Source of the DNA: Euglena gracilis
Taxonomy: Eukaryota
Length of the DNA stretch: 64,000 bases
Assembly (NCBI GenBank): GCA_039621445.1
Contig: CP154954.1
Span: forward strand, 41,595,572 to 41,659,571
Reading direction: 5' to 3'
Shown here: piece after piece, positions 1,632 to 62,314 of the stretch
Position numbering within the stretch: the first letter of the stretch is position 1
Layout: every line of letters starts with the position of its first letter
The notes under the pieces: generated by a model
The model's input: the letters and a program-made list of their open reading frames with translations, nothing else
Databases searched by the model: none
Told to the model about the DNA's origin: nothing
Made by a program: the position numbers and the translations under genes

Positions 1632-1836
1632 CCATGCCCCCCCCATTGTGTACCCCCCCCATTGTGTACCCCCTGGGGGGGGGGGGGAGGTACATAATGG
1701 GGGGGGTAGCACCACCTTCTCCCATGTCCCGCCAAAGAAAAACTTGCCCCCCCCATTGTGTACCTCCCCCCCATTATGTACCTCCTGCCCGGTTTTGGCC
1801 TCCCGGGGGGAGGTACATAAAGGGGGGGGGGCATGG
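1632..1836. mobile_element. TA-TSD MITE (Tc1/mariner-like), present in array copies 1-3
   Basis: TA|CCATGCCCC...GGGGCATGG|TA; the empty site GCAAAA-TA-TTTTGGG is seen in copy 4 at ~13294-13308; related element at ~31644-31792. Confidence 0.88.
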
Positions 1837-10600: not shown

Positions 10601-13600
10601 CATGATCTTGAAGGGAGATTAACGGCGAACTTCTGAATTGGCTCGGGTCATTTTCCTGTGAGTCACACGGCTGTCCGACGGCTGGCCGACGGCTGGCCGA
10701 CGGCGTGCTCCCCCTATTAGTTGGGATATATAAAAAAGGGCCTTGTGGGGCTGTGCTCCTCCACCAAATCCACTGTTCACCGTCCACATTGACAAAAGAC
10801 ACCAAAAGTCATTACCTGAATGGCTACAGTTGTTACAAAAAAAATTGTTGTGCAACAAAAAATTTTCCATTTATAGCTAACCCCTCCAAATTCTGCCCCC
10901 CCGTCCCAAAATATGGTGCCTCCTGGACCCCTCACTTTTGCCAGGGTTCCAAGAAATATTTGCCACCCGGGTAAAATTTTTTTCTACAAATTCTATCACT
11001 TTTGCCCTTGAGACCCGAAACTTTTGCCAACTGCAAAAAAAAATTTCCGTTAATGTGAAAAGGAAACGTCCAGCAGAATCAGCATAAATTAACAGAAATA
11101 CACCAAATAAATGTGATCATCAATCCAAATAATAACAATTGAAATTTCACAGGATGTTGCAGACAGCTCTCCAAAAGGAAATTTGTTTGATACCCTACAA
11201 AAAAAACTTCAACTGTGTTTGGGGAAAGAATGAGAGGTGCGGATGAATGCCTAAACAGTAAAAATCAACAGCAACGTAATGGTTGTGATTCACACGAGAG
11301 AGTTTGGGGTGCAGGTTGAGGGAAACGGTGAACACAACGCACAGCGTGTTTGGCAATGAGGGGTGAAGGCACTTTTGGTCCATGTGTGAGGGTCATTCCA
11401 CACAAAAATGTGTTCAAAGAGGCACAGCAAAAATATTCCGAGCCTTTGTAAAGAGAGGGACGGGTAACAAAAGAACCAATCCCACTGCCTTCCAGGGCCC
11501 CGAGCGGATTTCCGGTGGTGGTCGCTGTGGAGGTCGGGCCGACCATGGTCGGCCCGACCATGGTCGGCCCGACCATGACCCCCTGTGGAGGTCGGCCCGA
11601 CCTGGTCGGCCCGACCACCATTTTTTTGCACTACCCCCCCCCTTTCTGGAGATTTAAGCCCCCCCCCCTGAAAAAAACTTTTGTCCAAATCACCCCAACA
11701 CCAGTCAAAACCCACCCAAATGGCTCCAGAACCCCCCAATCGGGGGTGGATATGCAAAAACTTGGGGGGGATATGCCCATTTTGGGCCACTTTTGGCAAA
11801 AGAACACCTCTCCCCATTGGATTTTCAATATAATGGCAAATTTTGCACAAAAAGGACTTAGCACTCAAGTATGCTGATGGCGTTTTCCTGTGTCCAAAGA
11901 GAATTTATGAGGTTATTTGAAGGAGTAGGGTTAGGGTTACGATTCTTATCCAAACAGCAGAACATTTCCCGCTCAACGTTGTTAGATTGGTCTCTACAAG
12001 GTACCCAGCGAACCCAAAGAGCCGCCCAACTAGGGTTAAAAACATGGGGGGACCCGAGCGAGTCGCCGAAGGCGCCGAGCGAGGGTTCCCCCATGTGTAT
12101 TAACCCTAGTTGGGCGGCTCTTTGGGGTAGCTGGTACCTTGTAGGGCCCAATTTATCACGTTTCTGAACAGCCGGCCTGTTGTCCTCTAACTTGAAATTC
12201 TTCAAGCCGGTCAATGAAGGAGGAGGAGGAGGTAGGGTAGGGTTAGGTTATGGTCGGCCCGACCTCCACGATGGGGACCACCAGAAATCCGCCCGGAACC
12301 GGGGGGGGGGGGTAGTGCAAAAAAATGGTGGTCGGCCCGACCTCCACAGGTCGGGCCGACCATGGTCGGCCCGACCTAAATTGGTCGGCCCGACCATGGT
12401 CGGCCCGACCTCCACGATGACGACCACCGGAAATCCGCACGGAGCCGCCTTCCAGCTGTAATTATGTTTTAAAACTGCCTTTTTGACCTATTTGTATTCA
12501 CAGATATGTATATATTCCACCAGATAGGTATCGTTGGAGACAAGGCAGTACGGTTGGTCAAACCTTGGGACCCCCCCCTCCCCCCCCCCTCCTGTGCAGT
12601 TCCCACCCCCCCTACTGGGAACCTCCCTCCCCCACTTCCAACCCCCCAAGAAAAACAAAAAAACAATCAAAAATGCAACAGCATTGGTCATCTTCCCGCA
12701 AGATGCAATCTGAACTCTGAACTGCACAAAATGCTTGTACAACGAAGGCAACCTCAATTGGACGAAAAATGTCGCAACTGTCTCGGGGGTAGGCAGTACA
12801 GTTGTGATTTTCTGGGGACCCCCCCCCGTTACAGCTTCCAAACCCCCCTTGCCCCCCCCCCCCGGGCCTTGACTCCGATTTAATGCATCATGGAACGATG
12901 GACCTTCTGCTCAGTCACACGGAAAATGTTAAGCAATCCAAACACAACCCGAAAAAGGCTGTAGTCTGTGAGATCATTGGTTGAAAACAGATTTGAGCAA
13001 AGTTGAACAAAACCACACCAAACGTAAATGCATCAAAATTTGAAACTTTTTTCGTCTTTTCGACACGCAAAATGGTGTTTAAAATGTCACAATGTGCAAT
13101 GTGAGTGTGTACATTCTGTGGAACATTGTGGAACATTCTGTGCAGACATTTCAACTGAAAATGGCGGGAGAATGTTTTTGGAGGTGGCAAAAATTTGGAG
13201 GACAGAGGCAAAAATTCGAGGTTTTTGAGGCAAAATAGAATGGACAGGGGGCAGCATTTTTTGGACGGGGGGCAAAAATTTTGAAACGAGTGTGCAAAAT
13301 ATTTTGGGACGGGAGGCAGAAAAAAGGAGAGACCGGGCAAAATATAGTGAGTGTTAGCTATAAGGCCATTTTAGGCCATTTTAGGCCGTTTTAGGCTATT
13401 TTTAGCTATAGGTGCTTGGACGCAGGGGAGACACCCCCCATGGGTGACCATTGGCACCCATGACCAATCATGTGTGCCCAATGCCAAAAATGGCAAGGGT
13501 GGTCTACTCAGGTTCAACCCCCCCCCCCGATCCAGTGCAGATGATCGGAGGTGCGGGACCCCCCCCTTCCCAGGAGCCATTTTTGACCCGAAAATGACCT

Positions 13601-14635
13601 CACCCCCAAATTCCAAAAAAAACCCTCCAAATGCTCAAAATATCAATAAATTTGATGTTTTAGAATCCAATTCTCCAAAACAATTGTCAAAAAAAGCCCA
13701 AATTCGCATTTTGAGGGCAAAACCAATCCACTGCCAAAAAGTGCCAAAGAGGCAAAAGGTAGCGCATTGGTGAAACATTTGGAAAAGCTTTGGAACGGGG
13801 GGCAACATGGACCCTCAAAAAACACGATGCAAAAAAAGGATTTCATTTTGTGTAAAAAAAGGAATTTTGTCACCAAAAAAAAATGCAAAATGGGGGAAAA
13901 AATTGCAAAAATTCTGGTCTCGGGGGGAAATCGGGGCCCCTTCAAACCTTGGCCCAAAAACACTTGTCTCGAAATCGGCCCAAACACGGCTTCAGGGGGT
14001 GGGCCTGGGTCACGGGGGGGGGGGGGGCACGGGCAGGGCAGAACGGGAAGGCCTGGTGGGGGGGGGGGGGGGGTCGACCACCCCCCACCAACCACAGCAT
14101 TTTCACCGATTTCGGGAAAACGGGGATTTTGGCCAGAAAAATTCTTGAAATTTTTTTTTTGAAAAATGAACCCAAAACACATGATTTTTTGATGGAAAAC
14201 CACATTCTTTTCACAAAAAATCTCAAAAAATTCAGGGTTAAAAAAAATTGGTAGTTTTCAGGAGGGGGTGGAAAATAACGAAGGTCAAAAAAAGTGGACC
14301 AAATTTTGGCACAGTCAAACTTTACTGCCATTTTTTCTTTGAAATTTTTTGGACTTTCAATGGCATTTTTTGCTTCAAAAACCTCTCAAAATCAAAAATT
14401 TGAGAAAATGTTGAATTGTTGGAAGGTGAGAAAAAAAAACAGGATTTTGGGGCTTTTTGAGACCCCCTATATGGGTCCCAAAATGGTCAAAAAAACACCC
14501 GGCACCGAAGGCACCGGAAAATTTTTTTTCGGGTCCAAAAATTGGTGCTCCCGGAAATACGGGAAGAGGTGGGGTGGGGGGCGGGGGGCGGGGGGGGGGG
14601 GGGGGGGGGTCAGGGGGGGTTTGGGGGGGGGGTGT

Positions 14636-26301: not shown

Positions 26302-28277
26302 GGCCCCGAGCGGATTTCCGGTGGTCGTCCTTGTGGTCGGGCCGACCATGACCCCCTGTGGAGGTCGGCCCGACCACCATTTTTTTGCACTACCCCCCCC
26401 CCTTTCTGGAGATTTAAGCCCCCCCCTGAAAAAAACTTTTGTCCAAATCACCCAACACCAGTCAAAACCCACTTAAATGGCTCCAGAACCCCCCAATCGG
26501 GGGTGAATATGCAAAAACTTGGAGGGAAAATGCCCATTTTGGGCCACTTTTGGCAAAAGAACACCTCTCCCCATCAGATTTTCAATATAATGGCAAAATT
26601 TTGCACAAAAAGGACTTAGCACTCAAGTATGTTACCAACATAGAGGAGATTTTGTTATTTGAGGGGGGGGTACGGGGGGGGGCTGCCCCCCCCCCCCCCG
26701 CCAATGCAAAAGTGAGCCACAAAAACAACTTAGCCCCCGAGTATGTTGCCAACTTAGAAGGGATTTTGTTATTTGAAGTTCGGATGGGATTTATCTGGGG
26801 GTGTTTACTTATTTGGACCCATCCGGACCATTTCCGGGTGATTTGGGCCCGCCACGGACCATTTTTATGACCACCGACTCGTTTGCATAGGATTTTCTTC
26901 ATGGGGGGGACTTAAACGTCGGCGGTACTGACCCGTTAGTACATTAGAGTGGGTGGTTGGCCGATTACCCAATACCCCCCCACCCCGTCTCGCCGACCAG
27001 CTACCGACCATTAACGTGACCCCCCCCCCCTATATGACACCCCCCCCTAATAGTCGCCCCCCCCTTGGGGGGGCGACAATTAGGGGGGGGGTTCCCATGG
27101 ACCCAAAGGAAATGTGGGGTAATTGAGTAACCCCCCCCTAATTGTCACCCCCCCCTAATAGTCGCCAGGGGGGGTCAAAACGCTCCCGGGGGGGTGCCAT
27201 TTAGGGGGGGGGTCACGTTAGTCGGCCGACTACCCCCCCCCCCGGTCTGCCGCCATGCGCCCCGAAGCCGCCTGGCCGAAGGCCGAAGGCCGCTGCAATT
27301 CAGAACCTGAAAAGTTGATGATGTTATTTAAAGGCGTACGGTTAGGGTCAAATTTCGATTTCTAACTGTCCCATCCCATCCCCTCAACGTCGTTAAATTG
27401 GTGTCTGCAGGGGACCCAGCGAACCCAAAGAGGCGCCCAACTAGGGTCCCCGAATGTGTATTACCACCCCCCCCCCCATATTGTCCCCCCCCCATATTGT
27501 CCCTCGGCCCGGCCGACGAGGGGTTTTTTTGGCTCGGTCAATGAAATTTCCTTTGGTACCCCCATATTGTCCCCCCCCCCCATATTGTCCCTTCGGGCCT
27601 CCTGGGGAGAGGTCGGTGGGACAATATGGGGGGGGGGGTGGTAACCCTAGTTGGGCGCCTCTTTGGGGTAGCTGGTCCCCTGCAGGCACCAATTCATCAC
27701 GCATCAGTCACCGACCCTTCAACTGGTCGATCGACCCTTCAACTAGTTGGTGGTAGGCTGCAGGGGGGGGGGGGGTCCTGGCCAATTGGTCGGTCGACCA
27801 GGCCTAGTCGGCAGCTAGTCGGCGAGACAGGGGGGGGGGGGCAGTTGGCCGACTATTCGGTGAAATACCCACTTTAATGTATTAATGAGTCAACCGCCGA
27901 CTTTTAAGCCCCCCCCTGAAAAAAACTTTGGATGGGGGTGGACGGGGGAGTTTTCTGCCTCTCGTGAGAGTCATGGCCAGTTTCCCCCCCCCAGGACCCC
28001 CCCCCAGGACCCCCCCAGGACAGAGTCCTGGGGGGGGGGGGACTGGCCAAAACTGCATTTCCGGGTGATTTGGGCCCGCCACAGACCATATTTATGACCA
28101 CCGACTAGCCACCAACGAGGGGGGGGGGGGCTTAAAAGTTCAAAAAAGGGGGGGGGTATTGCGGGAAAATGGTGGTCGGCCCGACCACCACAGGTCGGTT
28201 GACCACCACCACAGGTCGGCCCGACCATGGTCGGCCCGACCACCACGACGGCGACCACCGGAAATCCGCTCGGAGCC
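26302..28277. mobile_element. Independent insertion of the same Mutator-like foldback family, enlarged by nested MITEs
   Basis: Same TIRs; flanks ACCTTGCTT and ACCTTGATC (7/9 match); contains TA-flanked MITEs at ~27014-27217 and 27464-27641. Confidence 0.75.
27464..27641. mobile_element. TA-TSD MITE inserted in a hairpin repeat
   Basis: TA|CCACCCC...GGGGTGG|TA; other copies of the host hairpin show the empty site GTAT-TA-ACCCTAG. Confidence 0.8.
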
Positions 28278-28404
28278 ACCTTGATCTTCACACATGAGCA
28301 GTGCCAGACGGTATACTGGGGGGGGGGGGTCCTGGGTGGTCGGCCGACTAGGCCTGGTCGGCAGCTAGTCGGCGAGACGGGGGGGGGGGGGGGGGGGGTA
28401 GTGG

Positions 28405-28490
28405 GAAACTGGCCCGTAACTACATTAGAGTGGGTGGTCGGCCGACTAGTCGGCCGACCACCCACTCTAATGTAGTTACGGGCCAGTTTC
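28405..28490. repeat. Perfect 86-bp palindrome without spacer
   Basis: GAAACTGGCCCGTAAC...GCCGACT|AGTCGGC...GTTACGGGCCAGTTTC, centre 28447/28448. Confidence 0.95.
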
Positions 28491-28699
28491 GCCGACTTTT
28501 AAGCCCCCCCCCTGAGAAAAAACTTTTGTCCAAATCACCTCAACACCAGTCTAAACCCACCCAAATGGCTCCAGAACCCCCCAATCAGGGGTGAATATGC
28601 AAAAAAATTGGGGGAAAATGTCCATTTTGGGCCACTTTTGACAAAAGAACACCTCTCCCCGTTGTATATAAGTCAATATAAATCAAATTTTGCACAAAA

Positions 28700-29335
28700 A
28701 GGACTTGGCCCTCCAAGTATATTGCCAACATAGTAGGGATTTTGTTATTTGAGGGGGGGGGGTGCGGGGGGGCGGAGCCCCCCCCCCCGCCTATGCCAAA
28801 GTGAGCCACAAAAACGACTTAACCACAGAGTATGTTGCCAACATAGAAGGGATTTTGTTATTTGAGGGGGGGGGGTGCGGGGGGCGGAGCCCCCCCCCCC
28901 CGCGTATGCCAAAGTGAGCCACAAAAACGACTTAGCCCTGGAGTATGTTGCCAACATAGAAGGGATTTTGTTATTTGAGGGGGGGGGTGCGGGGGGGGGG
29001 GGGCGGAGCCCCCCTGTGTGCACTGTGGCTGTTTTTTTGGTGCCTTTTATCCCTTCTTCTGGCCTGGCGCTGTTGTTCGCCTCTGGCTCATTTTGTCTGT
29101 GTATGTGGAGGTGGCCGGAGCCTGGCGGGACTTACCTTGTTTACGACGCCGGCCACCAAGCGCCCGCCAGGCACATACTCCACTTTGGTTAGGGGGGGTC
29201 TCCTTCACCGTGACGACGCACCGGTTACTCCAGTCCGGGGGGGGCGGAGCCCCCCCCGCCTATGCCAAAGTGAGCCACAAAAACGACTTAGCCCCCGAGT
29301 ATGTTGCCAACACAGAAGGGATTTTGTCATCTGAG
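28700..29335. repeat. Degenerate ~115-120-bp repeats
   Basis: Recurrent GCCAAAGTGAGCCACAAAAACGACTTA...GTTGCCAACATAGAAGGGATTTTGTTATTTGAGG; also at 26600-26780. Confidence 0.8.
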
Positions 29336-30202
29336 GCTCGGATGGGGTGGAGGGGGGAGTTTTCAGCCTGTCGTGATGCAGAATGCTTGCATTTCTAAAG
29401 GATTTCCATGTAATCCCTGTTTCGTCATTGGTTTTTTACCCCTCCGGACCCCATCAAGGGCCCACCGACCCCCCACCGACCAAATATTTCCATCTGAGGG
29501 TGTTCCTGTTGGTGTAAGGCACTTATTTGGACCCATCCGGACCATTTCCGGGTGGTTTGGGCCCGCCACAGACCATTTTTATGACCACCGACTAGCCACC
29601 GACTGGTTTGCATACAATTTTCTTCATAAAAAGTCGGCAAGACTGGCCCGTAATTACATTAGAGTGGGTGGTCAGCCGACTAATCCGCCAACCACCCACT
29701 ACCCCCCCCCCCCGTCTCGCCGACTAGCTGCCGACCAGGCCTAGTCAGCCGACCAGTTGGGTGGTCGGCCGACTAGTCGGCCGACCACCAAGGACCCCCC
29801 CCCCAGTCTACCGCCTAGAGCCCACATGAGCACATGAGTGCAATAATAAAACCCAAACAGGTGGGCATTCTAGATAAAGGGACTTGTTGTTCAGGGGGGG
29901 GGGAACATGTGCACCTTGTCCAATTCTTGCAACACCTCGTCATGGTGTGTCTCATCATCGAAATAAGGCTTCTTCTCAACACCCTAGAAACCATCTTCCA
30001 CAAGCTCAAAACCGCAAAAGAAGCCTGGTCTGGATTTCCTGGACTTCCAGCAAAGGAGCTTCGCTTGTGGCGGTTTTTCAAAAAATGAGACATTACTTCA
30101 TTCTATGATGAAGAAAAGATGGCAATTGTAAAAACCTTCAAATATTTTTGGGCTGAGGGGGGGGGGTCTGTACCGACCCATATAGAAAATCGGGTCCCAA
30201 AA

Positions 30203-32415: not shown

Positions 32416-32845
32416 CAGGCATTTGCATAAGGGATTGCAGTACCCCCCCGGGGGGGGGCTGGACTGCAGCTAGTCCAAATTTGGCTAGTGGGTTTTCTAG
32501 CAGACCCCCCCCCCGGGGGGGGGTCTGCTAGCAGGGCTAGCTAGTGGAAAAATTTTTTCCAGTGACCGGCGCGAAGCGCCGAAAATTTTTTTTGGGACCC
32601 CCCAAAATGGCCAAAAATGCCCGTTTTTGGCCATTTTTGGAAATTTTTGGAACAAAATCAGCCAAAAACCTATTAAAAACCTCAATTTTCCTCCGGCGCT
32701 GTGCGCCGGAGGAAAATTTTTTTTCCACCCCCCCCCCCCCGCCTCCCGGGGGGGGGAGGGGGGGTTGAGCTAGGCCTCTTTTTCCAGTGTCTAGCCGATT
32801 GGCTAGCCAGTACCCCCCCCCCGGGGGTCCTTAAGCAAAAGCCTG
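32416..32845. mobile_element. hAT-like MITE, 430 bp
   Basis: TIR CAGGCATTTGCATAAGG / CCTTAAGCAAAAGCCTG; perfect TSD GTTCAGCC at 32408-32415 and 32846-32853. Confidence 0.9.
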
Positions 32846-35854: not shown

Positions 35855-36279
35855 CATAGCTGGCACTTCGTTTAAAACGAAGTCAAAAAAAACACGTTTT
35901 TTTAAAAAAAAACATGTTTTTTTAAAAAAAAACAAAAAAACGCCATTGAGGGCCCAGGGCAAAAAATTTTTTTGCCTTTAATTTTAGCTTTTTTTTGCCC
36001 ATCAGGAAGAGAAAGACACCAAATTTGGGATGTTTCAAGTTGAAACATCCCAAAATGGCAGAAAAATGCCCTATTTTGACCATTCTTGTTGAAGACCTCC
36101 AAAAGTATTGGTTTTCAAGTCATTTGAGCTAAGATTGGTTCACCGTTGCGATCAAAGGCAAAATTTGGACCATCATTTTCCCCTTTGTTTTTTTTGCCGT
36201 TTTTTTGCCTGTTTTTTTTAATAAAAAACAAAAAAAAAAACGTTTTTTTAAAAAAACAAAAAAAAAAACGCCAGCTATG
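35855..36279. mobile_element. hAT-like MITE, 425 bp, adjacent to the previous one
   Basis: TIR CATAGCTGGC / GCCAGCTATG; TSD GTCTCGGC at 35847-35854 and 36280-36287. Confidence 0.88.
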
Positions 36280-40955: not shown

Positions 40956-41075
40956 CAGGGGTTTTTTTAAGACCGGGGGGGGGGAGGGGGGGGTCCCCCC
41001 ACCCACCCACCCCCCTGGGGGGGGCCACCCACCCTTCCCCCCCCCCCCGGGGGTCCAAACTTAAAAAAATCCCTG
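40956..41075. mobile_element. hAT-like MITE, 120 bp, same family as 35545-35846
   Basis: CAGGGGTTTTTTTAAG / CTTAAAAAAATCCCTG; flanks GGCTGGAT and GGCTGGAC. Confidence 0.85.
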
Positions 41076-46028: not shown

Positions 46029-49000
46029 TACATGGCAGCTGGTGTTCAATGGCCCCCCGGGGGCATTAAACATCTCCATGGGGGGGAGTATGGCGGCCTG
46101 CGGGTCCGACTTCGGGGGCAGTCGGGGTTATTGGTTGGGATAGGGTCAGGGTTCCGACCGCGCTCCTGGCTGATCCTATTTTACGGACTTAGGGATAGTT
46201 AGGTCCCGATTCGGACCGAGTTGGGCAGAATTTCGGTTGGATTTTGGTAAAATTCTGAAGAACTACGACCCCAAAATCTTTCAAATGGGGATTAACGTCC
46301 TACCTAACTTGGTTCCTAAATTTGGCCAATTTCTGTTTCGCCAATCCTAACATTATTCCGAAAAGTAAACAAAATCCTCCCCAAATACAACGAAATTCGC
46401 CCAGATTCGCCTTGGTTCCCCCCCGATTCTCATTTTTCGTGATTTTCGGTGCACGGAAAAACAATTTGGTTTGGCCCCCTTGCATATTTTGCAACGTTTT
46501 TACTGCAAAGGGCTTCATCATCTGGTCCCCCATGGCATCTGAGTTTCGGCACAACGGATCGTCGTACCAAAAAAGCAACACTGGGGGAGCCCAGGTGCGG
46601 GCGCGATGGGTCCAGTTGGGGTGGGTCTGGAGGTACTCCGCCCAGCGCGAAGCAGTCGCCTCCCCGTCCACCTCTGCTCGTCGCTCGCACAGTGCCAGCA
46701 TGGCCTCAGGGTCGTACCCAAAGGCAGGACCAACAGCTTCAGCTTGTGGGGGGGGGGTCCAGACAAGAGCGTCGTGGGATGGGGTCCAGCAAAGGCTGGA
46801 AACAGCCAGGGAAGAGCTGGCTGACTCCCCGCCACACTCAATGCCCCCCCAATCAAATCGGACGCAGAAAAATCGAAACTGCAAAATCCTGAAAACCCAG
46901 CAAGCCCATGCAAAAAACCTCACTGTGAGTCCCCCCCCCAAAACCTGGGTAGCCCAAATTCCAACCCAATTTTGGCCAATTTGGAGCCTAAGGTTAAAAA
47001 AAAAGGATGAAAAATTGATGTTTGGGCGGAAACTGCTGGCTGGCTGGTTGGATCCTCATCCGCATCCATCCTCATTGGGGGTGAGGTGAAAAATGTTCAG
47101 CTCAACTGACTTGCAGTTCAGTCCGGGGGGGGGGGGCAATTAACCTTACTGTTCGGTCATGGTCAGCCCGTGCAGCAAACAATGCCCCGATGTAATCTGC
47201 CTCATACTCCCTCGCAGCTCCCGTGCATGAAGGAGGGGGGTCTCTGGCGAGAGTGCAGAGGATGCAAACAACCATTGCATTCCCACCACCAACACAAGCA
47301 CAAAACGCAAAGAAGCAGCCTAAACGCACACACGCACAGACACACAAAACACAAACAGAAATTCGACTTCATGCATTTTGGGGAGCCTGGGAGTAACAAA
47401 AAAATATAAAATAAAAAAATAAAAACATGATTCTCATGATTTTTTTGAAGGGTACTCACCAATGACGAAAAACTGATGTAAAATATGGTCTCTGGAAATC
47501 GGGTCGAAAATGCAGATCGAAATATTCTTTGTATCAAAATATTCTCCAGGAAAAACCCAGGAAAAAATCACAACACGGGAAAAAACATGGTTTGTTGCGA
47601 TGGGGCGGCCAGGGCCTGGTAGTGGTGCCGCTCGAATGGCAATTCTGTCATGAAGTTCCGCAGCAGCCGAGGCATCGCCACCTCCGTGAAGAACAACATC
47701 TGGGGGGGGGGGGCAATGGAGGGGCTCACGATGCGAATGATTTTTGCTGGAAGAAATTTTGAAAAGCATCATCACAGATTTGCCACACCTTGATGATGGG
47801 TTCGACGCATTTTGTACAACATTTTGGTCTGCCTTGAAATTTTCAAACCAGCGAGTGAGCCCATCCATCAGGAATTTCTTCATTTCGAATTTCTGCGGCA
47901 GAGTTTGGAAAAAATGGTTGGCAAAAATGGAAGGCTGTTTAACGTTCTTGCAACAATTCAAAACATGCTGCCGATTTGGCTTCACCTATTTCTCTGGAGC
48001 ATATCTCCACACTCCCAGTGCTTTTCATAACATGCATTAACACATTTCAAATTTAATGTGAGTTTCAACAATTTTTTGTTCAATCCAATGAATTTTTTGT
48101 TTCACGGCTGCCCCCCCTATCGGCAGGACAGATTTAGCAAAAAAAAAAAACCATGCAAATGTGAGATTCCCATTGAACGACTTGAACCACTTGACGTTTA
48201 GAAGGAGACTAGGTGCAGCTGTCCACCACCACTGCTCTGAACCTGCACCCCTGCTCCAACTCTAAATACCCCCTACCTTTTGAAACACCACAGGATAAAT
48301 AAGGTTTGGTTTGGTTGGTCAGCCCGAAGGGGGACTATATCTCAAGGAGATGCTACAAAACTCGACCTCCAACATGACCCAAAATACCACCCCAAGGTGT
48401 TATTTGGAAGCGAAATTGCACTTCTTGAGTACGCTTGGGGCACATTCAATATGCAAAAAAATACGAAAATCAGGATTACTTTTCTTCTATTCTTCGCTGG
48501 GGGGGAACAGTTATCCTTTGGTTTGGTTGGCACTCAGGGGGGTCTGGAGGTTCAGGGGGAACCTTTGTGGTCATGAACACCTGTTTCCCCCCAATCGGTT
48601 CAGACCTGATAGCTCGATGTGATGTCGGGGACGACGAGGGCCATCGTCCAGAAGAAGAGGTTGACGGCGGCCTGCGTCACGTTGGCGAGCGTCCACCGCT
48701 CGTACGTGTGCCGCGCCACGACGTGCGCCATCTCGTGGCCCACCACGCACGCCAGCTCGGACTGGCTCTCCACGGCGTGGCACAGGCCCGTCGTGACGAA
48801 CAGCGCCCCGTTCTGCAACGCCAGGGAAGAGGAGGAGTGGGAGGACGAGGAAGAGCGGGAAGAGGACCAGTGTGCGGTTGGGGACGGAGGCAGGGAAATC
48901 CACCGCTGCTTGGGACGGAGGGAATGTGCATAACCGCTCCCCGTCTTCCCACAGAATACCCTGCCCCCAGGGTTGCATGGGAAGCTCTGCAGACATGAGG

Positions 49001-52000
49001 TAGTTGGTAGGGGGGGGGGTCGCTGAGCTCTTATCTCTTTAGAGAAAGAGCGAAGCTTACCCCTGGGGAAAGGGGGGTCGGACCCCCCTTGCCCTCCCCC
49101 CCCCCCGGGTCAGGGCCACCTTGGGAACCGGCGGATTATCACCATGATCCTGGCTCCGTTCCCGATTTTTTTTTCTTCAGTCGCGAGCGACTGGATTTCT
49201 AGTTTCCAAATCACCTCCGTTTGAGCCCCAACTCCCCGCCAGGCCCGAGATATTCAACCGCGAAGCGGTCCAAATTGGGTAGGATTGGCCCCCCCTCTTC
49301 CGACTCTGCCATTTCGCTGGTGCCCAAAAATCGGTCAAAAAAATCGATTTCTCGAAAATATCTCGAGAAAACGTACATTATTTCCGGAAATGTCGGTCTG
49401 ACGAAATGTACCCATGGAGGCCCTCTGTCGCCCCCCGTTCGCCGTTTTGCCGTTTCGCCGACACGCCTGGCCCGTGTTCCAGCGCGCTTTTGCGGCCCAA
49501 ACCGGCCATTTTGGGTGTTTTTTTTGACCTTTTTTTGGTCTAAAAATCGATTTTTCCAAAATATCAAAATCAAAGGAAAAGTCCGGATGAAGCCCTTGGA
49601 ATGCCATACCCAACCATGGTTTACTTCCCCCCCCCCCCAAACTCTTCGTGTAGCCCGAGGCAAACCCCCCCCTTAATAAGTGCGCAGTGCCGCAAATTGT
49701 GCGCAGTGCCCTAATAAATGCGCACCTCCCAAGGGTCCGAAACTACCTCCCTAAAAAAGTGCACATCCCCCCAAATGGAGAAATCACTGTCACATCTCAG
49801 GTCGGAAAGCACATACAATTGTCAGAACCGTCCTCCTCAGACCAAATATTTCTATCATCCAAGCCTAAATTTGACACGTAATCACTTGACTCATAGCTTG
49901 AAATCACAAAATAGGGGGAAATTGAAAAAGAGTGGGGGAAATATAAGTATTTTCGGCTTTATCCTAAAAAGTGCCCACTGCCCTAATAAGTGCGCACCCC
50001 TTGGGGTCCGAAACAACGTCATCAAAATGCGCGCCCCCGTGCACTTATTACGGGGGGTTACGACCATTTTCCGGCCAATTTGGCCCATTTCAGGGACCAT
50101 TTTGGCCGTTTTTGGGGTCAAACAATCGATGTTTCCAAAATATCTCGGAAATGAAGCAAAATCAAAGGAAATGTCCGGAGACCTAATTTGAAGCCCTTAA
50201 AAGCCCTATCTAACGAAACTTTGATTTCCCCGCAACTCCCCGCCTCGCCCGAAATATGGTCGATTTACGGCCCAAAACAGCCGGCAGGCTTGTGACTTAG
50301 TCGTTTTCGGCCTCTTTTCGGGGGTCAAAAAATCAATTTTCTAAAATTGCTCAAAAAAGGTGGGGAATCAAAGGAAATGTCTGGAGACCTATTTTGAAGC
50401 CCTTAAAATCCTCTATCTAACGGTGCTTTGATTTCCCCGCAACCACCTGCCCAGCCCGAGTTACGGCCATTCTTTGGCCAATTCTGGTTATTTTGTACAG
50501 TTTTGGCCTGTTTTGACTTTGCCATTTTCGGCCATTTTCGGGTGAAAAAGTCGAAAAAATCGAATTTTTTTTTGCCGGAAACGATGTTTTTTTGGCCTCC
50601 CGGACCCGAAAAACCTATTTCTCGATTTTTTTCGACTTTTTTGACCCGGGTTTGACCCAAAGTCAATGGCCCAAAACGGGGCGCTGGCGGATCGAAAAAC
50701 GCCCATTTTCGGCTCAAAAACGGTTTTTCCGGGTCCAGGAGGCCAAAAGACATCGTTTCGGGCATTTTTTTTTCGATTTTTTTTTCGACTTTTTGGGCCG
50801 AAAACGGCTAAGTCGAACAGTGGAAAAAGTGTACAAAATAGCCTAAATTGACCGAAAAACGGCCGTATCTCGGGCTGGGCGGTGAGCTGCGGGGAAACCA
50901 AAATCCCAGTACATAGACCGTTCCAAGGGCTTCAATTTAGGTCTCCCTCCGGACATTTCTTTTGATTTTGCATCATTTTCGAGAAATTTTGAAAACATCG
51001 ATTTTTTGACCCCCCACCCCCCCGAAAACGGCCAAGTCGGACAGTGGGAAAAGTGTACAAAACGACCATCTGGGCCGAAAACGGCCGTATCTCGGGCTAG
51101 GCGGGGAGTTGCGGGGAAATCAAAATACCGGTAGATGGGGCGCTCCAAAGGCTTCAAATTAGGTCTCCGGACATTTCCTTTGATTTGGCTTCATTTTGGA
51201 AATATTTTGAAAAACTGGTTTTTTTGGCCAGGGGTCGCCAGGGGTCAGCTTCGCTCTTACCCAAAAAGGGATAAGAGGTCAGCGACCCCCCCCCCAATAC
51301 ACCCCATACTCATTTTGTTGGATTTTTTCAACATTTTGACCCAGTGTTGACCCAAATTCCATGGGTTTCGAGCCAAAACCGAGGCGCTGGTGGGTCGAAA
51401 AATGCTCATTATCGGGTCAAAATCAGGTTTTCCGGGTCCGGTGTGTAATTAGTAGTAAATTAAAAATTACGCGAAATTTGCAATGCTAGTCTTTCGGCCT
51501 TCCATTACATGCAAGTCCCGTTATGAGCTCAGCACTATTCAAAACCTGGTCACCCCCTCCAGGGGGGTAAGGTGGGGGGGGTCACCCCCCCTAGTTTCGG
51601 AAGGGGGTCCCCCCCACTCCCTCCCCCTCCTCTGCAGGGGCAAAAAAAAATTTCCGGCGCTTCACGCCGGGTGTGTATTTTAGGACCCTCTTGAGATTCA
51701 GCATGAAATTTTGGCAAAATGGCCAAAAATGGCCGTAACTCGGGCAGGCGGGGAGTTGTGTGGAAATCAAAATACTGTTGGATAAGGCATTTTAAGGGCT
51801 TCAATTTGGTTCTCCTGACATTTCCTTTGATTCCTGACCATTTTTGACCCAAAAAACAGCCGAAATTTTCGGCGACTGAAAACTGGAGGTAGGAGGGGGG
51901 GTCCCCCCACACCCCCCTGGTTTTGGAGGGGGGTCCTCCCCCAGAGATTCCCATACAACCCTGCCCGTCCCCACAAAACAATGCCATAATCCAAACGGTG

Positions 52001-55000
52001 CAGACAAAAGAAGAAATATACAAACAAATTAAACAAAATACCACAAAAATACAAAAGAATGCCCAGACAGAAGAGCTGCCCAGAAGCAGTCTTCACCATG
52101 GGATCACGGGCCTTGACCAGAGGGGGGCACCTGAAACGAGCACGCGTTGAACGCCTCGTCACGGATGAAATGGCAAGACCAGCTCCGGGACCGCAGTTCG
52201 GGGGACCCGGCCACCAGCCCATCCAGGATGGTCCGCAGCGCCGCGGAGGAGGCCTGCGGAGGGTCCACCACCTCCTGCAGCGACGTCTCGTACGCCTCCT
52301 GGACGATCTCGTCCACTGCCCCGAAGGGGGCACTTTGATGCAAAAACAGATCTTAAAGGAGAAAACAAAAGGCATTGTTGTGGATATACGTCGTAGTGTT
52401 TGTGTGTGTGTGTGTGTATGTTTTGTGGTGCGTGAGTGTGTGTGTGTGCGCGCGCGTGTGTGCATGCGAGTGAGCACATATACAAATATCTACAAATGCA
52501 CATTTCTGTACCCGCATGTTTCGGAATATCCACCGATGTGTTCTCAAAGAGGTGGGAAGGCACTGGGAGGCTTCGGCTTCAAAGGGGTCCCCCGGCGCAA
52601 TCTCCCAGCTGGCCAGCCACGTCATCTGCCAGCGGCCGGTGACCGGGACCAGGCATTATTATTTTTTAAGGCGCCTTAAAAAACCTTAAAAAACCTTAAA
52701 AAACCTTAAAATTTTTTTTGCCAAAATGCCTTAAAAAACCTTAAAAAACCTTAAAAAACCTTAAAAAAATCACCCCGGGGAAGTTTTTCTTCCCCGTGAT
52801 GACCTTAAAAAACCTTAAAAATTTTCCCTGGGAAATTTCTTCTTGCAACAAACAAATAATGGCATATCTGAAACCCCGCATAAAGCCAGTCCCCAAGGCA
52901 GAAAGAACGAAGCGGTTTTTCAGTTTTTTTTTACCTTCTTCCATTTCTCAATGCTGTCTTTTGGCTGAGTTTTATCTTAGTTCTTTGCGAACAAAATTAC
53001 ATTGAAAAATGAACCCAAAATGTATGGTGGTTGGTTTTTTGATGGAAAATCACATTTTCCCAAAAAAAATCACCAAAATTTTAGGGATGAAAATTGTTAG
53101 TTTTTAGGAGGGGGGCCAAAAAATGCAGGTCAAAAAAATGGGACCAAATTTTGGAACAGTCAAATTTTACTGACATTTTTTCCCTTGTAAATTTTTTGGT
53201 TTTTAGTGGCATTTTTTTGCTTCCAAAATCTCTCAAAATTAAAAGTTTGAGAAATGTTGATTTTGAGAAAAAATCAAAGATTTCAGGGTTAAATTTGGTA
53301 GTTTTAGGGGGGGGGTGGAAAATAACGAAGGTCAAAAAAGGTGGACCAAATTTTGGCACAGTCAAATTTTACTGACACTTTTCCTCTGTCAAATTTGTTG
53401 GATTTTCAATGGCATTTTTCTTGCTTCAAAACCCTCTCAAATTCAAAATTTTGAGAAAATGTTGATTTTTTGGAAGATGTGAAAAATGGGGTTTTGAGGG
53501 AGTTTAATGGCCATTTTTGAGGAAAAAGTTCTAAAGTAATTTTTTGTCATCAAAAAGTGACGTTTTTAAGTTTTTCCAGGCTTTTTTTGTTGCGTTTTTT
53601 TAAAAAAAAACATATTTTTAAAAAAATTGTTTTCTTTCTAAAAAATTTATTTGTAAAAAACTTGTTTCTTTAAAAAAACGTTTTTTTTTAAAAAAAAACA
53701 CATGCTTTTTTAAAAAAAATTGTTTCAAAAAAAACAAGCAGTCAACCTTGGCAAGAACCTATGGTCAAGCCCCAACCACCCCGCACTTACCTTCCTTCCC
53801 TTGTGTCCTTCCCGTCGGCTCAGTCACACCACACCCATACCCCCCGGACCTTCCTCCCTACACATCAACAAACAGCCCCAAAACACCACATCAAGGCGCC
53901 GCAAGCAACGCAATCCGGCAAACACCCAGGACGCACACCGCCGGCAGCTCGGACACATCCGGGGACACAGCCGAAAGGAGCAACAGGGGCAGTAAAGGTC
54001 CCGTTCCTATGGTGCTTTTTTGTGTTTTTTTCAGGGTGGGCCGGCAGGGTCCCGTAGGTTTGGGCCCACAAAGTCCTTCCCGACACACCCCAAAATCACT
54101 GTTTTCCGCCAAAGTCCCGGGGGTCTCCCAGCCAAAATCAGAATTTTGCTCATTTTTTGCACTCTCTTGTTCACGTGTTTTCAAACCCCCCGGACCTTCA
54201 CAGCCGAAACAGAGCACAATCAAAAAAATCGTAAATTTGCGCAAATGCGCGCATCAAACGAAAAAAGCTTAAGTGCGAATTCGGCCGCCTAAGTTCGGGT
54301 TTTGGACCCGAAATAATGTTTCTGGCGTCTTCGGCGCCGGGTGTTTTTTTTTTGACCCATTTTGGGACCCATATGCAGGAACCCATAGCCAAAATGGCCT
54401 AAAATTCCTAAAATGCCTTGAATGGACTAAAATTCCTAAAATGTCTAAAATGGCAATAACTGTCCCTCATGGACCGCCCTGATCCCATGCTTCGCCCGAG
54501 GCTTCTTCCTTGGGCGTTCCGAAGCCACAGAAGTCTGAAGCCATCGGGCCATCTTCGGGGTCTGAGATTTTACCTGAGGAAAAAAATGCCTTAAAAAAAC
54601 CTTAAAATTTTTTAAAATTCCTCAAAAACCTTAAAAAACCTTAAAAAACCTTAAAAACCGCCTTAAAATTTTTGAGAAATCTCGCCTTAAAAAAAATAAT
54701 GCCTGACCGGGACCTGGTCCACGTGGGTGTACGCGAAGGCGCCGCCCCCCCCGACGAGCAACGCCCCCCGGAGCCGCTGCGGCCAGCCTTGCCCCCGGTC
54801 GTATCTCTGCCCCGTATGGGCCGACGTGGATCGAGAGAGTCTGGCTGAACGGCAGCAGTCAGCCAACCGAACAACGACTGCTGTGAACCGGGGCCAAATG
54901 GTCGTTGACACGCGCACCAGTCTATTTGTATGCAGTGTGTGACTATGCCTGCAAATGTGTGTGCTGCTGTGCGGGATGTGTTTGTGCGGGACATGAATTG

Positions 55001-56693: not shown

Positions 56694-59600
56694 TCAGGCG
56701 CTGCCGCCCCCCGCGGCAGGGCCCGGCGGGGGCGGCGGCCCGCGGCGCTGGATGCTGAGGAGGACGTTGGCGATGACGGCGTGCAGCGCCGACGCGGAGG
56801 GGCTGCCGCCGAACGCCTGGATGAAGCCGCCCCCAGGGGAGGGGGGGAGGGGGGTCGACCCCCCCCTGCCTGCTGGGGTGCCAGGGGAACGCGAAGCGCC
56901 GAAAAAAAATGACGGGGTTTCAAAACCTGCCCCACACCCACATTGTTGGTCATTGTTTTCAACACGTTGGCAAAAACATATGAGAAATGCACTCCGGTTT
57001 TTGGCGCGAAGCCCGGACCGCCCCGCGGGGAGGGGGAGGTGATCCGAACCTCTGACGTGGGAGGGGGAAGGGAGGAGGGGGGCAATGCGATGAGGGAAAG
57101 GCACAGAGAGGGGTGCGTGGGTTGGGGCCCGCCCTCCGCTGGCCGCGGCCGTCGTCCTCGCACTCTGCCAGGTTGGGGTCGATGGGCACCTGTGGGGGGG
57201 GGGGACGATGGAGACCGCACGGGGTGTGGGCCCGGAGGGGGGGGGGGGGGGGGGGGGGGAGGGGGGGGCCGACCCGGCCGAGGAAGGGCACGCCCTCCGC
57301 CGCCGCGAGGCGCTCCCCGCCGCCATGGGAGAAGATGGCGGTGCACTCCGCGCAGTGCGGGCGGGGCCAGCGGGGCCACTGTCCCACCCGTGGGGGACGT
57401 TGGCCCGGGGGGGGGGGGTCCGAAAAGAGGCCGTTTTGGAACGTAAATCGGCGATATCTCGGCCTTGGCGGGGAGTTGCGGGGAAATCAAAATACCGTTG
57501 GATAAAGCATTGTTCGGGCTTCAATTTAGGTCTCCGGACATTTCCTTTGATTTTGCTTCATTTCCGAGATATTTTGGAAACATCGATTTTTTGACCCCCC
57601 AAAAAACAGCCCAAAATGTCCCCAGAAATGAGCGGCACCCGGTGACGGGGGGACCGGTGGCGACCAACCGACGCGACAAAGCCGGATGGGCGGAGCCCGG
57701 GGCCCGCTGCGCAGACGAAGCCGGACATGTTCTCCACGATGCCGAGGACGGGGAGCGACGCGACGCGGCAGAAGTCCAGCTCCTTGCGCACGTCGTCCAC
57801 GGAGACCTGCAGCCACACGCGCATCGCTTCTGAGCCGTCGGTATATTTAACAACACATCCAATGCTGCAGCCAACGTTGCGTGGAAACGCTGAACTACAC
57901 GTACAATATTTGCCAGCTCCACTTCCCTCGCTGGCCCGCGTGGAAACCGATAACCACAATCACCATTTGTCCAGGCTGCAGTCGTCACAGAGTCGGTCAC
58001 ATACATTTTTTTTTACCGACCCCGGGGGGGGGGTCACTTCCATTTTCCAAAAACCAGTCACTCACCTTTTTCTGGAAGACCAATCAATCACTACCCATCA
58101 GGGGGAGGGTTGCTACTCTGAAATCCAAAGAAAATTTGACCACAACCGTGAAAAAAACGGAAATTTTTTTTGGGGATGACTGGTTTTTCACTCTGAAAAA
58201 CCAGTCATACCCCCCGGGGGGGGCAGCCAGCGATTGAGTGATTGTATGGTCGTTCATCAGTCCAGCAACCACAGCTGCGTGGCCCAACCCCATGAGATGC
58301 GTGTGCGGCCACACAACACACAACACACACAACACACAACACAACACAACACACACACACACACGCACACACACACAGAGGCACACACACATACACAACA
58401 CACACACACACAAACACACAAATCCAAACACAACTACAACTACACAAACACCGACAGAACTGTCAGCCCACCTCTTGGGGAGTCGTCACAATCACCGCAC
58501 CAGAGGGGTTGTAAGGCTGTGAAAAGAAAAAAGAAGCAGCAGAGGAGATTATGTGCGCTTTCGAGCACCCCCAGAGACAGCAGGCAACCTGCGCGAACAC
58601 ACCTTTGGTTCACTACCCCCCCCCTGGGCGCTTGGCCCAGGCCATAATTAAAAAAAAAAGAAAAAAAGGTAAGGCCAGGGGGCCAACCTTAGGGGGAAAG
58701 TTTGCATGTAAAGAATTTTGGCCTCCATGTGCAAAAAGCCGAAGGCCAACTTTAGGGAGGCCAAGTTTTCATGTAAGGAGGAGGGCGGGCCAAGCGCCTG
58801 GGGGGTACCTGGATAATGCCGGCCCTTTACAATCCGCAATGTGGTTTGGGCTTCCCTCCCCCTCCTCTCCAACGGATGTGTCAGCCACCAGCCCCACAGC
58901 AGTCAAAAGACGAATGTGTGGTGGTATGTGCATATGTTGCCGGCGGCATACAATCAGGTTGGCGCACGTGGCGATGTGTTCGTCGCTGGTCCCCGGGGGT
59001 GTGTCGATGATGAGGTAGTCCAGCGGCCCCCAGTTGACGTCGGTGAAGAACTGCGGCACGAAACACCCAGGGCGATGGGCAGCCCCAACTGCTTCACTTC
59101 ACACGCCAGAACGCGAATCCCAGCCAGGTCCAAAAATATGACGTTTTTGTACGCGACTTTTCGGGCTGAATTTTCTTAATCCAAACTCTGTGAATCAAAA
59201 AGGTGGACTTTGTTTCCAAATTGGAACAGAAGGGAATCCGGGTTGCAAGAATTTCCAAAAAACCCTCCACTGTTCGAGACGACTTCGGCCAGGGTTCTTT
59301 CCTACGATGTTGCCAAGAGCAGGCACTACCCCCTGCCTCCCCCCAGGTTGACTTCAGGTCATAACGGGTCCGACCCAAAAAAACTTTCCTTGAAAACCTC
59401 CCACCCCCAAAATCAGACCCCAGGCCGAAAAAATCCAACCCCTGGTCGGAAAAAAAAACCACTTTCCCTCTCAACCAATAGCACCCCCCCCCCCCTGGTT
59501 GCACTAAAGCTTCTTGTTTGTTTATGGCCGGCGCTAACTTCGCTTCTGGCCCAGTTTGCTGTGTGGTGGCCAGGTACCCTTACACCAGTGCTCTTTTGTT

Positions 59601-60948
59601 GCTCCACCTGGCCGGGTGAGCAACTCTGGTGTAATTCCAGCACCCCCCCCCCCGGAGAGCGGAGAGGGTCTGCATTTTCTTTGAACAAAAACCTGATCTT
59701 CTTGGCAAATCTCAAAAGTATGATGAGCGTCATTTTTTTGGGTAAAAAATGCCTTTTCTTCTGTGCCACATGTGCAAAGACTTGCAGCTTGTATTGCGGA
59801 CATTTTTGATGATGTGTAACCTGGCTGTCTGATTTTTCTCGACGCCAGGCAATTTTTCATTCACCAATTCTGTCCACCCCAGTTCCCGCAGTTCTTGCAT
59901 GGTGCTCAAGAGACTCCTCTCTTGAGCTGGAGTGTTCTCTGCAGCAGCTTCAGTTCCAGTGAATGAAATGACATGCATTCAATCGATCAATCAACTGTTC
60001 GCAATGAACGTGTGAAAATACTCCGGCGTTCACAACAAAAACGGAGCGCTGGGACCTGTTTGATCATGGCGTTCTTGCGGGGCCCCCGCCACACGATCGC
60101 GTCGTCGGGGCCCACCATGAAGCCGATGGAGATGGCCCGGGGGCAGGCGGCGGACCGCTGGCCGCCGTCGGGGCTCCGATGTCACAAAGCAATGGTGGCT
60201 GCTGCCTGGCTTCCTGCCTGGCCATCCCGTTGCAACAGATTGCGTCGGCCAAAGCATCAAACAGCCGCAATAGATATAAAGAGAAGAAGGCATGCAATAT
60301 TGACATGGGTTTTGGGGGGGGGGTATTTCAACGTAGGTTTGAAGGTGGGATGAGCACGCCCTCAGCTACTCAGCCTCATGGTCGAAACTTCATTTATGGC
60401 CATTTATGGCCAAGGGTTCATTTATGTGCTTCAGTGCATGGAAAGCACCGAAAACATACTCATTCACTCCTTTATTTACTTGTGCTCATGCAATAAAAAA
60501 CAAAAAAAGGAATACAGCGTCTTTGCCATGAATGCACACTGCACCTGCATTTCTCCCACTCATACAAAAACACACGATCAGTGATGCTCAGCACACACAC
60601 ACACACACAATACACACATACACACAACACAACGCAACACAACACACACGCACACGCACACACACACACACACAAGAACGCGCACACAAGAAGAAAGACC
60701 AGATCCAGCGGCCTGGGGATAATTGTCCTGCCTGCTCCCCACTGACTGGCACGGCGATCGGTGTCCACCCCTCGGGTCTGCCGGGAATGAGAAACGTTAC
60801 ATTTCAACTTATTCGATGACGCGCTGGTTCAAGAGAAAAAATTATGAAAAAAGGAGATGCCACGGATAACCGCCATCCCAAGCCCAAATTCCTGAAACTG
60901 GCACACACACACATACACACACATACATGCACACACACACACACACGC

Positions 60949-61009
<61 letters not shown>

Positions 61010-62314
61010 AACGACGTGCCACGACGGCAGCGCGCACACACCCCTGAGCGACGTCGCGGCCCTCCACGCCCAGGATCTTCGGCACGCTCGGCCCGCAGAT
61101 GTCGACGTCCAGGATGCCCACGCGGTGCCCCTCCAGCGCGAGGGTGAGGGCCATCTGGCACGCCACGGTGCTCTTCCCCACGCCCCCTGTGCCCCGCGGG
61201 AACCCCACGGATGGCCCCGACACCAGTCAATGCCGGGTTGGGTGAGCGGGCGACACACAAAGCGTCGCGACGGAGGGGGAACGACACGCAAGGCACTTTG
61301 CTTGGTGAACACCCGAAGGTGCACTTGCTGGGCCCTGGGAAACTGTCACCAGACAAGTCAGGGAGTACAGCGGTTGGTGACAGGTCCCTCCCTGTGTGGA
61401 CAGATCAGCGAGTATGGGACCGGAGGACAGTTTCCCGGGGGGGGGGGTTGGATCAGAGGGAAAAACTGACATTTGACCCCCCCCAACCGACACAAAAACC
61501 CGAGAATTCGGGGTTTCACATATTTGTGGTCAGAAGCCAGATGAAAATGGAGGAATTTTTTTTCAACTCAGGAAACATGCTTTTTTCAACAAAAAAAGGT
61601 GAAAATTCTCAAAAAAATATGGTCAGTGGGTGCAAAGGTTGGTGACAGGCTCCTATGAGGATGGGTTCGTGGGTACAGAGGGTAGAGGACAGTTTCCTGG
61701 TGGGGAGAGTTTCCCCGAAGGGGAAGGGGTGGGTATCATAATGTCATGAACGACTATGAATGCATTTGTTAATATGTCAATTACCACAAAAAAACCAAAA
61801 AGACCCCATAATTGTTAGAAAATCTTCATTCCTTCCTTGGTGCGTTCAGAACATAAAGAAAATTAACTGCACACCCTCCTTATCTCATCCCGCCTCACCC
61901 CACTTCACACTATTCCCTTCTACATTCATCCAATATCCCGTACGGAAAAATCTGTTCCACTTTTTTTTGGGTCAGCAGGATGTTTGGAAGCAATGGAGCC
62001 TTCTGACGGAAAGCGGTTGGTGGGGGGGGGGCGGGTTCTGGTTAGCGGTTTCGCAGAACAAACCAGCAGAGAAAACGAGAATCCATCCCTGCCGGGGGGC
62101 GGCGGGCACGGCACACCAGGGTTCGATATAAGGAGAGGGGGGGGGGGGGTACGGACCCCCCCCCCCTGCGGGCCAGGAGGGGGGGGGTGGGGACACCCCC
62201 CCCCCACCTAAACCATGTACGCCCTCCTTATATCGAACCCTGCGGCACACCCTTGCCGCTCAGCACCAGGACCACGTGCTGGATGAGGGCCATCCGGGCG
62301 GCCAACTCGTCCAT
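56694..62314 (-). CDS. NUBP2: Cytosolic Fe-S cluster assembly factor CFD1/NUBP2-like P-loop NTPase (Mrp/NBP35 family), 10 coding exons, ~285 aa
   Basis: Exons 62314-62251, 61186-61042, 60777-60719, 60138-60056, 59050-58952, 58516-58472, 57806-57713, 57362-57274, 57189-57145, 56828-56694 join in frame (858 nt). Motifs: [14 protein letters not shown] (Walker A), [15 protein letters not shown]...[59 protein letters not shown]. No N-terminal Cys-rich NBP35 extension, so CFD1 type. Six GT-AG introns and three non-GT-AG introns (60139-60718, 57363-57712, 56829-57144). Confidence 0.93.
56829..57144 (-). other. Non-conventional intron 9 of NUBP2
   Basis: C|GGC-CAGCGGAGGG...CCCTCCCCTG-GGGGC|G; restores DDGR-GFIQAF; junction 8-mers GCCGCGGC and GGGGCGGC match at 6/8. 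Confidence 0.88.
57363..57712 (-). other. Non-conventional (non-GT-AG) intron 7 of NUBP2
   Basis: Minus strand T|GCG-CAGCGGG...CCCGCTG-GCCCC|G; CAG at +4, CTG at -8; removal restores FVC-PHC. Confidence 0.9.
60139..60718 (-). other. Probable non-conventional intron 3 of NUBP2
   Basis: T|CCC-CAGGCCGCTGG...CCAGCGG(7-nt bulge)CCTG-CCCCC|G gives GQL-W-AISIGF. An in-frame GT-AG alternative exists but gives a poorer protein. Confidence 0.7.
62117..62242. mobile_element. hAT-like MITE, 126 bp, at the donor end of NUBP2 intron 1
   Basis: TIR CAGGGTTCGATATAAGGAG / CTCCTTATATCGAACCCTG; perfect TSD CGGCACAC at 62109-62116 and 62243-62250. Confidence 0.92.

Follow-up and report, generated by a model that had tools for sequence, protein, structure and literature searches.

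In this work we analysed a stretch of 64,000 nucleotides from Euglena gracilis (assembly GCA_039621445.1, contig CP154954.1, positions 41,595,572 to 41,659,571 of the forward strand), hereafter called the window and numbered from its first letter. The minus strand of the window carries a gene for an OMA1-like M48 peptidase, one exon of which is interrupted by an AT-rich, non-autonomous element of 2056 bp with terminal inverted repeats (TIRs), here called element B (52650-54705). The element is flanked by an exact 8-bp target-site duplication (TSD), and its ends are those of the nonconventional introns of euglenids, suggesting that it may be excised from the pre-mRNA together with one copy of the TSD. 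Three further elements of the window, A, C and D, and a neighbouring NBP35-like gene bear on this interpretation.

Element B in an OMA1-like gene

The interrupted gene is recognized by an exon carrying the HEMAH zinc motif (48603-48821, minus strand), which matches Pfam Peptidase_M48 (E 7e-12) and its orthologues at 60-66% identity. Its nearest relatives, sought among 1.84 billion representative proteins, are P0089 (66% identity) and P0090 (60%), both encoded on contigs that barely exceed the length of the coding sequence, as fits transcripts. Fragments of the gene align to these two proteins from 55798 to 43736 with no stop codons; for the intron after exon 2, the orthologues alone leave many candidate boundaries. 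The upstream exon (54709-54825, minus strand; upstream limit approximate, from orthologue alignment) ends in AFAYTHVDQVP(V), and the downstream exon part, placed by the same alignment (52597-52644, minus strand), continues with (V)TGRWQMTWLASWEI. Both orthologues are gapless across the insertion point, where they read IDRVPVNGRW and VDYVPVSGRW. A long intron of the same gene, at 49200-51900, is full of repeated units that translate to recurring motifs such as KSKEMSGDL in several frames and looks like another dispersed repeat family.

Element B lies on the minus (coding) strand, which reads ..GAC CAG GTC CCG GT|CAGGCATTATTTTTTTTAAGGCG ... CGCCTTAAAAAATAATAATGCCTG|GTCCCGGT CACC.. across the insertion. 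Its 5' TIR (54683-54705, 23 nt) begins with CAG, and its 3' TIR (52650-52673, 24 nt) ends with CTG on the coding strand; the element starts CAGGCATTA-T8-AAGGCG, the reverse complement of its 3' end is CAGGCATTATTATTTTTTAAGGCG, and the two arms, which differ by one 1-nt indel, pair with each other in an RNA cofold. The TIR pattern had no chance match in 100 shuffles. The TSD, GTCCCGGT, is present at 54706-54713 and 52642-52649 in identical copies, and these are the only two occurrences of this 8-mer in the whole window. The repeat at the junctions is really 10 nt long (GTCCCGGTCA), because the two target bases that follow the TSD equal the first two bases of the element. Inside the TIRs lie subterminal 10-bp repeats, CCTTAAAAAA, about nine copies at 52674-52768 and about seven at 54589-54657. 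These data bear out what an earlier note on this DNA had described from its letters, namely a CAG..CTG element of 2056 bp with an exact 8-bp TSD inside a conserved OMA1 motif. The note had also called it a MITE (short for miniature inverted-repeat transposable element), a label that has to be given up: MITEs reach about 800 bp, and element B is better named a non-autonomous TIR element. None of its open reading frames (ORFs) of at least 111 amino acids, scanned with Pfam among the 148 such ORFs of the window, matches a transposase family.

The interior of element B has a GC content of 0.36 (measured over 53001-54000), and part of it is 80-86% identical to window positions 14159-14435; the element therefore contains dispersed repeat DNA. 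The dispersed repeat in question extends over 14159-14540, is 80-86% identical to positions 353-837 and 1651-1725 of element B, and has no CAG termini. When metagenomes were scanned for the TIR of element B, the single match lay in an AT-rich, bacterial-looking contig and was taken as chance.

Fit to the nonconventional splicing code

Removal of 2064 nt, i.e. the length of the element plus 8, deletes element B and one TSD copy and restores the motif: the joined exons encode ..AFAYTHVDQVPVTGRWQMTWLASWEI, which aligns gapless to both orthologues. The alignment to P0089 over 39 amino acids scores 110 spliced against 64 unspliced, and that to P0090 over 23 amino acids scores 83 against 38. If the element is retained, translation runs ..VDQVPVRHYFF and stops six codons into it. 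Given the junction repeat, there are 11 equivalent positions for the frame-restoring cut, and none of them provides GT-AG or GC-AG ends, in agreement with the earlier remark that no GT-AG pair removes the element cleanly.

A code for nonconventional splicing in euglenids, 5'-N3CDG-/-CH'GN5-6|R, was defined by knock-in experiments and has the following components (Nomura et al., 2025; PMC12501133). The donor spacer is 3 nt long and changes of this length are not tolerated; the core is CAG/CTG, or more generally CDG/CH'G; the acceptor spacer is 5 nt, with 6 nt tolerated; the downstream exon preferably opens with a purine; and the regions adjoining CAG and CTG need to pair. Five fully synthetic 50-bp introns built to this code were spliced after knock-in (PMC12501133). 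Exactly one of the 11 equivalent cuts at element B, from 54708 to 52645 (minus strand; slide position 5 of 0-10), has the form N3-CAG..CTG-N5 and is followed by an exon that starts with G. On the 5' side there is a 3-nt spacer followed by CDG (GGT-CAG, 54708-54703), on the 3' side CH'G followed by a 5-nt spacer (CTG-GTCCC, 52652-52645), and the first base of the downstream exon, at 52644, is the purine G. The cofolding energy of the element's ends is -49.2 kcal/mol; for 200 shuffled arms the mean is -22.2 kcal/mol (sd 2.9, best -33.3). As read from the DNA, then, the ends of element B together with its 8-bp TSD carry every feature of the published code, and a nonconventional intron of 2064 nt (GGT-CAG...CTG-GTCCC) is predicted at 52645-54708.

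The earlier proposal that cutting 3 nt before CAG and 5 nt after CTG deletes the element plus one TSD and restores the frame is thus correct in its arithmetic and agrees with the gapless orthologue alignment, and the geometry that it invoked, CAG at +4 to +6 and CTG at -8 to -6, fits the experimentally defined code (PMC12501133). Its further suggestion, that such an insertion could be spliced without a scar in either orientation and any phase, calls for a qualification: the purine preferred at the first downstream exon base corresponds to position 6 of the TSD on the sense strand. Excision of this particular copy of element B from the pre-mRNA is itself a prediction.

The same geometry is in use in a neighbouring gene. 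An NBP35/NUBP-like P-loop ATPase gene with eight introns (57148-62290, minus strand) was mapped by transcript-protein alignment, and all eight mapped exon segments match the E. gracilis protein EG_transcript_30546 (EukProt) with 100% identity, which identifies the window as nuclear DNA of E. gracilis. Six of its introns are GT-AG, and two are nonconventional with exact N3-CAG..CTG-N5|G ends: intron 3 (60139-60718, minus strand, CCC-CAG..CTG-CCCCC|G) and intron 7 (57363-57712, minus strand, GCG-CAG..CTG-GCCCC|G), both transcript-supported (P0006, 100% identity). Seven of the eight joins (five GT-AG and the two nonconventional ones) are dictated by the transcript-derived protein; intron 1, a GT-AG intron, was placed from orthologues and the P-loop motif.

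Related elements and the superfamily question

The whole window was scanned for CAG..CTG pairs 30-8000 nt apart with arms at least 8/10 complementary, and exact repeats flanking the pairs were counted by their length k. Among 1745 pairs, three had repeats at k=6, none at k=7, three at k=8 and none at k=9-13, where about 0.03 were expected for k=8. The pairs at k=6 all belong to a tandemly repeated region at 1-12.4 kb. Once this region and low-complexity repeats had been masked, three of 1471 pairs remained at k=8, for about 0.02 expected, and repeats offset by 1 to 5 nt from the ends numbered 0, 0, 0, 0 and 1. The three exact cases at k=8 are elements B, A and C. Allowing one mismatch added element D (7/8) and one pair 7.6 kb apart that we took as chance.

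Element A (32416-32845, 430 bp) has the TIR CAGGC(A/T)TTTGC(A/T)TAAGG and an exact 8-bp TSD, GTTCAGCC. Element D (40956-41075, 120 bp) has the TIR CAGGG(G/A)TTTTTTTAAG and the TSD GGCTGGAT/GGCTGGAC, and element C (62117-62242, 126 bp) has a perfect 19-nt TIR, CAGGGTTCGATATAAGGAG, and an exact 8-bp TSD. A, C and D are of MITE size, and B is not. For elements A and D, no clear ORF was found through the joined flanks. Element C (62109-62250 with its flanking repeats) sits inside the conventional intron 1 of the NBP35-like gene. Its TSD, GTGTGCCG, makes up the first 8 nt of the intron, so that a copy of the GT 5' splice site flanks the element at either end. The nucleotide following the predicted N5 cut of element C is C, a pyrimidine, and with this base the element may not be removable on its own. 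Elements A, B, C and D are ordinary mobile insertions, and only B needs splicing.

A, B and C share the terminal layout CAGG-N(7-12)-TAAGG, and D has TAAG at that place. This layout has eight matches in the window, compared with 2.46 expected, and none of 100 shuffles reached eight; for the extra matches, at 18649, 23617 and 52830, no convincing partner end was found. Two other structures in the window have 8-bp flanking repeats. A 425-bp element at 35855-36279, with a 10-nt TIR (CATAGCTGGC..GCCAGCTATG) and an exact 8-bp repeat (GTCTCGGC), ends in CAT/ATG, outside the CDG/CH'G code. The other, at 27807-29735, is an inverted repeat of 16 nt without mismatches (GTCGGCAGCTAGTCGG), flanked by the 8-bp repeat CAGGCCTA; it lies amid many GACTAGTCGGCCGAC palindromes and, instead of a transposon, may represent satellite DNA. 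The tandem region itself (1-12400) consists of at least three copies of units of about 3.87-3.89 kb, rich in palindromic motifs of the GGTCGGGCCGACC type; these units have no Rfam match, and the ORFs of one unit have no Pfam match. The Rfam scan of the window as a whole found nothing. Among the window ORFs, one encodes zinc fingers of the CCCH type (zf-CCCH, E 1.5e-08).

The earlier note described element B as hAT-like. Elements of the hAT superfamily are marked by an 8-bp TSD, short TIRs starting with CAG(G/A) and short subterminal repeats; their terminal consensus is YARNG and their target consensus nTnnnnAn, and the termini of maize Ac start with CAGGG. Element B resembles non-autonomous hAT elements (Ac/Ds, hobo, Hermes) in its 8-bp TSD, which is exact in B, A and C and 7/8 in D, in its CAG(G) termini and in its subterminal repeats, of a kind typical of hAT elements. 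C and D start with CAGGG, as maize Ac does, and fit YARNG. Unlike hAT elements, B and A start with CAGGC, whose fifth base misfits the consensus, and the target consensus is only half matched. No hAT domain and no transposase family was recognized by Pfam among the 148 window ORFs of at least 111 amino acids. On TSD, termini and subterminal repeats, 'hAT-like' is a reasonable label for element B, whose membership in the superfamily is putative.

The elements could instead belong to another superfamily with 8-bp TSDs (P, Merlin, Mutator-like or undescribed), a substantial possibility in our judgement, though short of an even one, that would leave the splicing interpretation unaffected. Apart from the CAGGC start of B and A and the lack of a hAT domain in the window ORFs, it is favoured by the fact that an 8-bp TSD is not unique to hAT: the Merlin families F1 and F2, which have 8-bp TSDs, exist in E. 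gracilis itself (PMC8101967). Merlin shares with element B this host and this TSD length, but according to the same paper all Merlin TIRs start with GG and the elements encode DDE_Tnp_IS1595 (PMC8101967). The flanking repeats in the window abut CAG/CTG exactly, and when GG is taken as the terminus no direct repeat is left. The CAGGG start of C and D and the short subterminal repeats likewise speak for hAT.

Excision of element B, its alternatives and its meaning

These observations lead us to regard it as probable, taking the explanation as a whole, that element B arose when a non-autonomous DNA transposon of the cut-and-paste type recently entered an OMA1-like exon, and that the machinery of nonconventional introns excises the element through the coincidence of 3+5 with the TSD. 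On the pre-mRNA, the two TIRs would form a long helix starting with CAG:CTG; the machinery, which in the literature is non-spliceosomal and yields a circular intron product, would then cut at a distance of 3 nt upstream of CAG and of 5 nt downstream of CTG. As these two spacers add up to the 8 bp of the TSD, this cut would remove the element and exactly one TSD copy, and would restore the reading frame that existed before the insertion. The anatomy of the element, its fit to the code, the restored motif, the 8-nt rule in four elements and the 3/5 geometry of two neighbouring introns are direct observations, and from them we infer that the 3/5 rule is causally linked to the 8-bp TSD.

Several observations weigh against this explanation, in addition to the missing transposase. 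Of the four elements, B alone is exonic, and its TIR does not recur within the 64-kb window. The code tolerates a 6-nt acceptor spacer, which would not fit an 8-bp TSD, and the predicted intron of 2064 nt far exceeds the 50-bp synthetic introns that were tested (PMC12501133). In the NBP35-like gene, the junctions of the older introns 3 and 7 lack a repeat (0/8 and 3/8 matches), which limits any trace of a TSD to young insertions. Protein searches with the HEMAH exon and the upstream exon did not retrieve an OMA1 protein derived from E. gracilis transcripts. The perfect TSD and near-perfect TIRs of element B, finally, imply that there has been no time for decay.

The last two points also count in favour of a null allele: element B would be a fresh knock-out, not excised or excised inefficiently, with OMA1 function supplied by an uninserted allele or a paralogue. 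The insertion is so young that the intact-looking exons are uninformative on this matter; the early stop codon caused by retention, and a length of 2 kb, much greater than that of the tested synthetic introns, also go in this direction. We nevertheless consider a null allele, although a real rival, rather unlikely, as every sequence feature of the knock-in-defined code is present (PMC12501133), nonconventional introns of up to several thousand nucleotides have been described (2024 review in Mob DNA, PMC11282704), and two introns of the NBP35-like gene, at a distance of 3-8 kb, follow this code as well. That the 8-nt junction repeat is a mark of double-strand-break repair rather than a TSD made by a transposase, which is how Milanowski et al. 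(2016; PMC4770533) read an 8-nt repeat of their own, is very improbable here: four separate elements share the CAGG-N(7-12)-TAAG(G) architecture and have 8-nt repeats abutting their TIRs (three exact, one 7/8), at least one of the four lies outside coding sequence, and repair filler would give neither a fixed repeat length nor inverted termini. Removal of element B by the conventional spliceosome through cryptic sites is hardly credible, since none of the 11 frame-restoring cuts is GT-AG or GC-AG and any other pair of sites would add or delete residues in a motif that is gapless in two orthologues. Maize Ds can be spliced through cryptic sites, and its spliceosomal removal was reportedly described by Giroux in 1994.

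The explanation that we favour, excision of a recent transposon insertion by the nonconventional machinery, has partial precedents. A parallel outside euglenids is found in the introner elements of Micromonas and Aureococcus, which Huff et al. are said to have described in 2016. In these, as in element B, the TIRs and TSD of a DNA transposon supply the splice signals, and the insertion is removed with one TSD copy (PMC11282704). Introners are reportedly removed by the spliceosome, with GT or GC taken from the element and AG from a 3-nt TSD, and form large, near-identical families, whereas element B is predicted to be spliced without the spliceosome, has an 8-bp TSD, and has a single TIR copy in 64 kb. 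The introner system that the earlier note saw here would be a putative one, with one exonic element out of four. Among euglenid introns, a MITE-like origin of the nonconventional class was put forward in 2014 (PMC3935182) and taken up again in 2018 and 2025; according to the 2014 text, transposable elements had not yet been recognized in any euglenid genome (PMC3935182). A 2024 review treats the CAG/CTG ends as TIRs and speaks of 'TSD-like' junction repeats, and in the relevant passage gives neither a length nor a superfamily (PMC11282704). A strain-specific nonconventional intron with 8-nt junction repeats, gapC intron 4 of E. agilis ACOI 323, was published in 2016 (PMC4770533, section 7) and its repeat was read by the authors as a break-repair mark (PMC4770533). 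This intron resembles element B as a recent gain with an 8-nt repeat and differs from it in species and gene and in the interpretation of the repeat. Direct repeats were reported in 2025 at 84.4% of introns, which were excluded as 'slidable' (PMC12501133). The idea of a MITE origin, repeats resembling TSDs at the junctions and a single strain-specific intron whose repeat is 8 nt long have thus been published before; in the main-text passages covered by our literature search, N3+N5 is nowhere equated with an 8-bp TSD, nor are these introns connected with hAT.

Like the nonconventional introns of euglenids (Milanowski et al., 2014, 2016; Nomura et al., 2025, PMC12501133), element B has no GT-AG ends, has CAG at +4 to +6 and CTG at -8 to -6, and combines a terminal helix with a downstream purine and direct repeats at its junctions. 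Unlike the others, it is a recognizable, intact transposon with TIRs of 23/24 nt and an unmutated TSD, and its excision is predicted. In sum, the observation of element B itself is confirmed, its interpretation as a spliced intron is partly supported, and the argument from geometry is sound, being strengthened by elements A, C and D and by one intron in the literature.

How the nonconventional introns of euglenids arise and by what mechanism they are excised has been in question since the 1990s. There is a further reading, on which our judgement is evenly balanced, in which nonconventional splicing erases transposon footprints, its 3/5 ruler being matched to the 8-bp TSD of CAG-terminated, hAT-like elements, and in which the whole intron class descends from such elements. 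If this is true, any such insertion into an exon, in either orientation and any phase, would be removed without a scar provided that a purine occupies TSD position 6. It would concern the whole nonconventional class, about 70% of the introns of Euglena agilis, and three of its features would be by-products of the TSD: the +4/-8 asymmetry, a Y|R preference that is the same at the two junctions, and the many 'slidable' introns. A MITE-like origin had been proposed from inverted repeats alone; the window contains intact CAG..CTG elements with an 8-bp TSD, of which element B interrupts a conserved exon. With spacers of 3 and 5 nt that sum to the TSD, the origin hypothesis becomes a quantitative prediction, and the link to the TSD would explain why direct repeats were found in 2025 at most intron junctions (PMC12501133).

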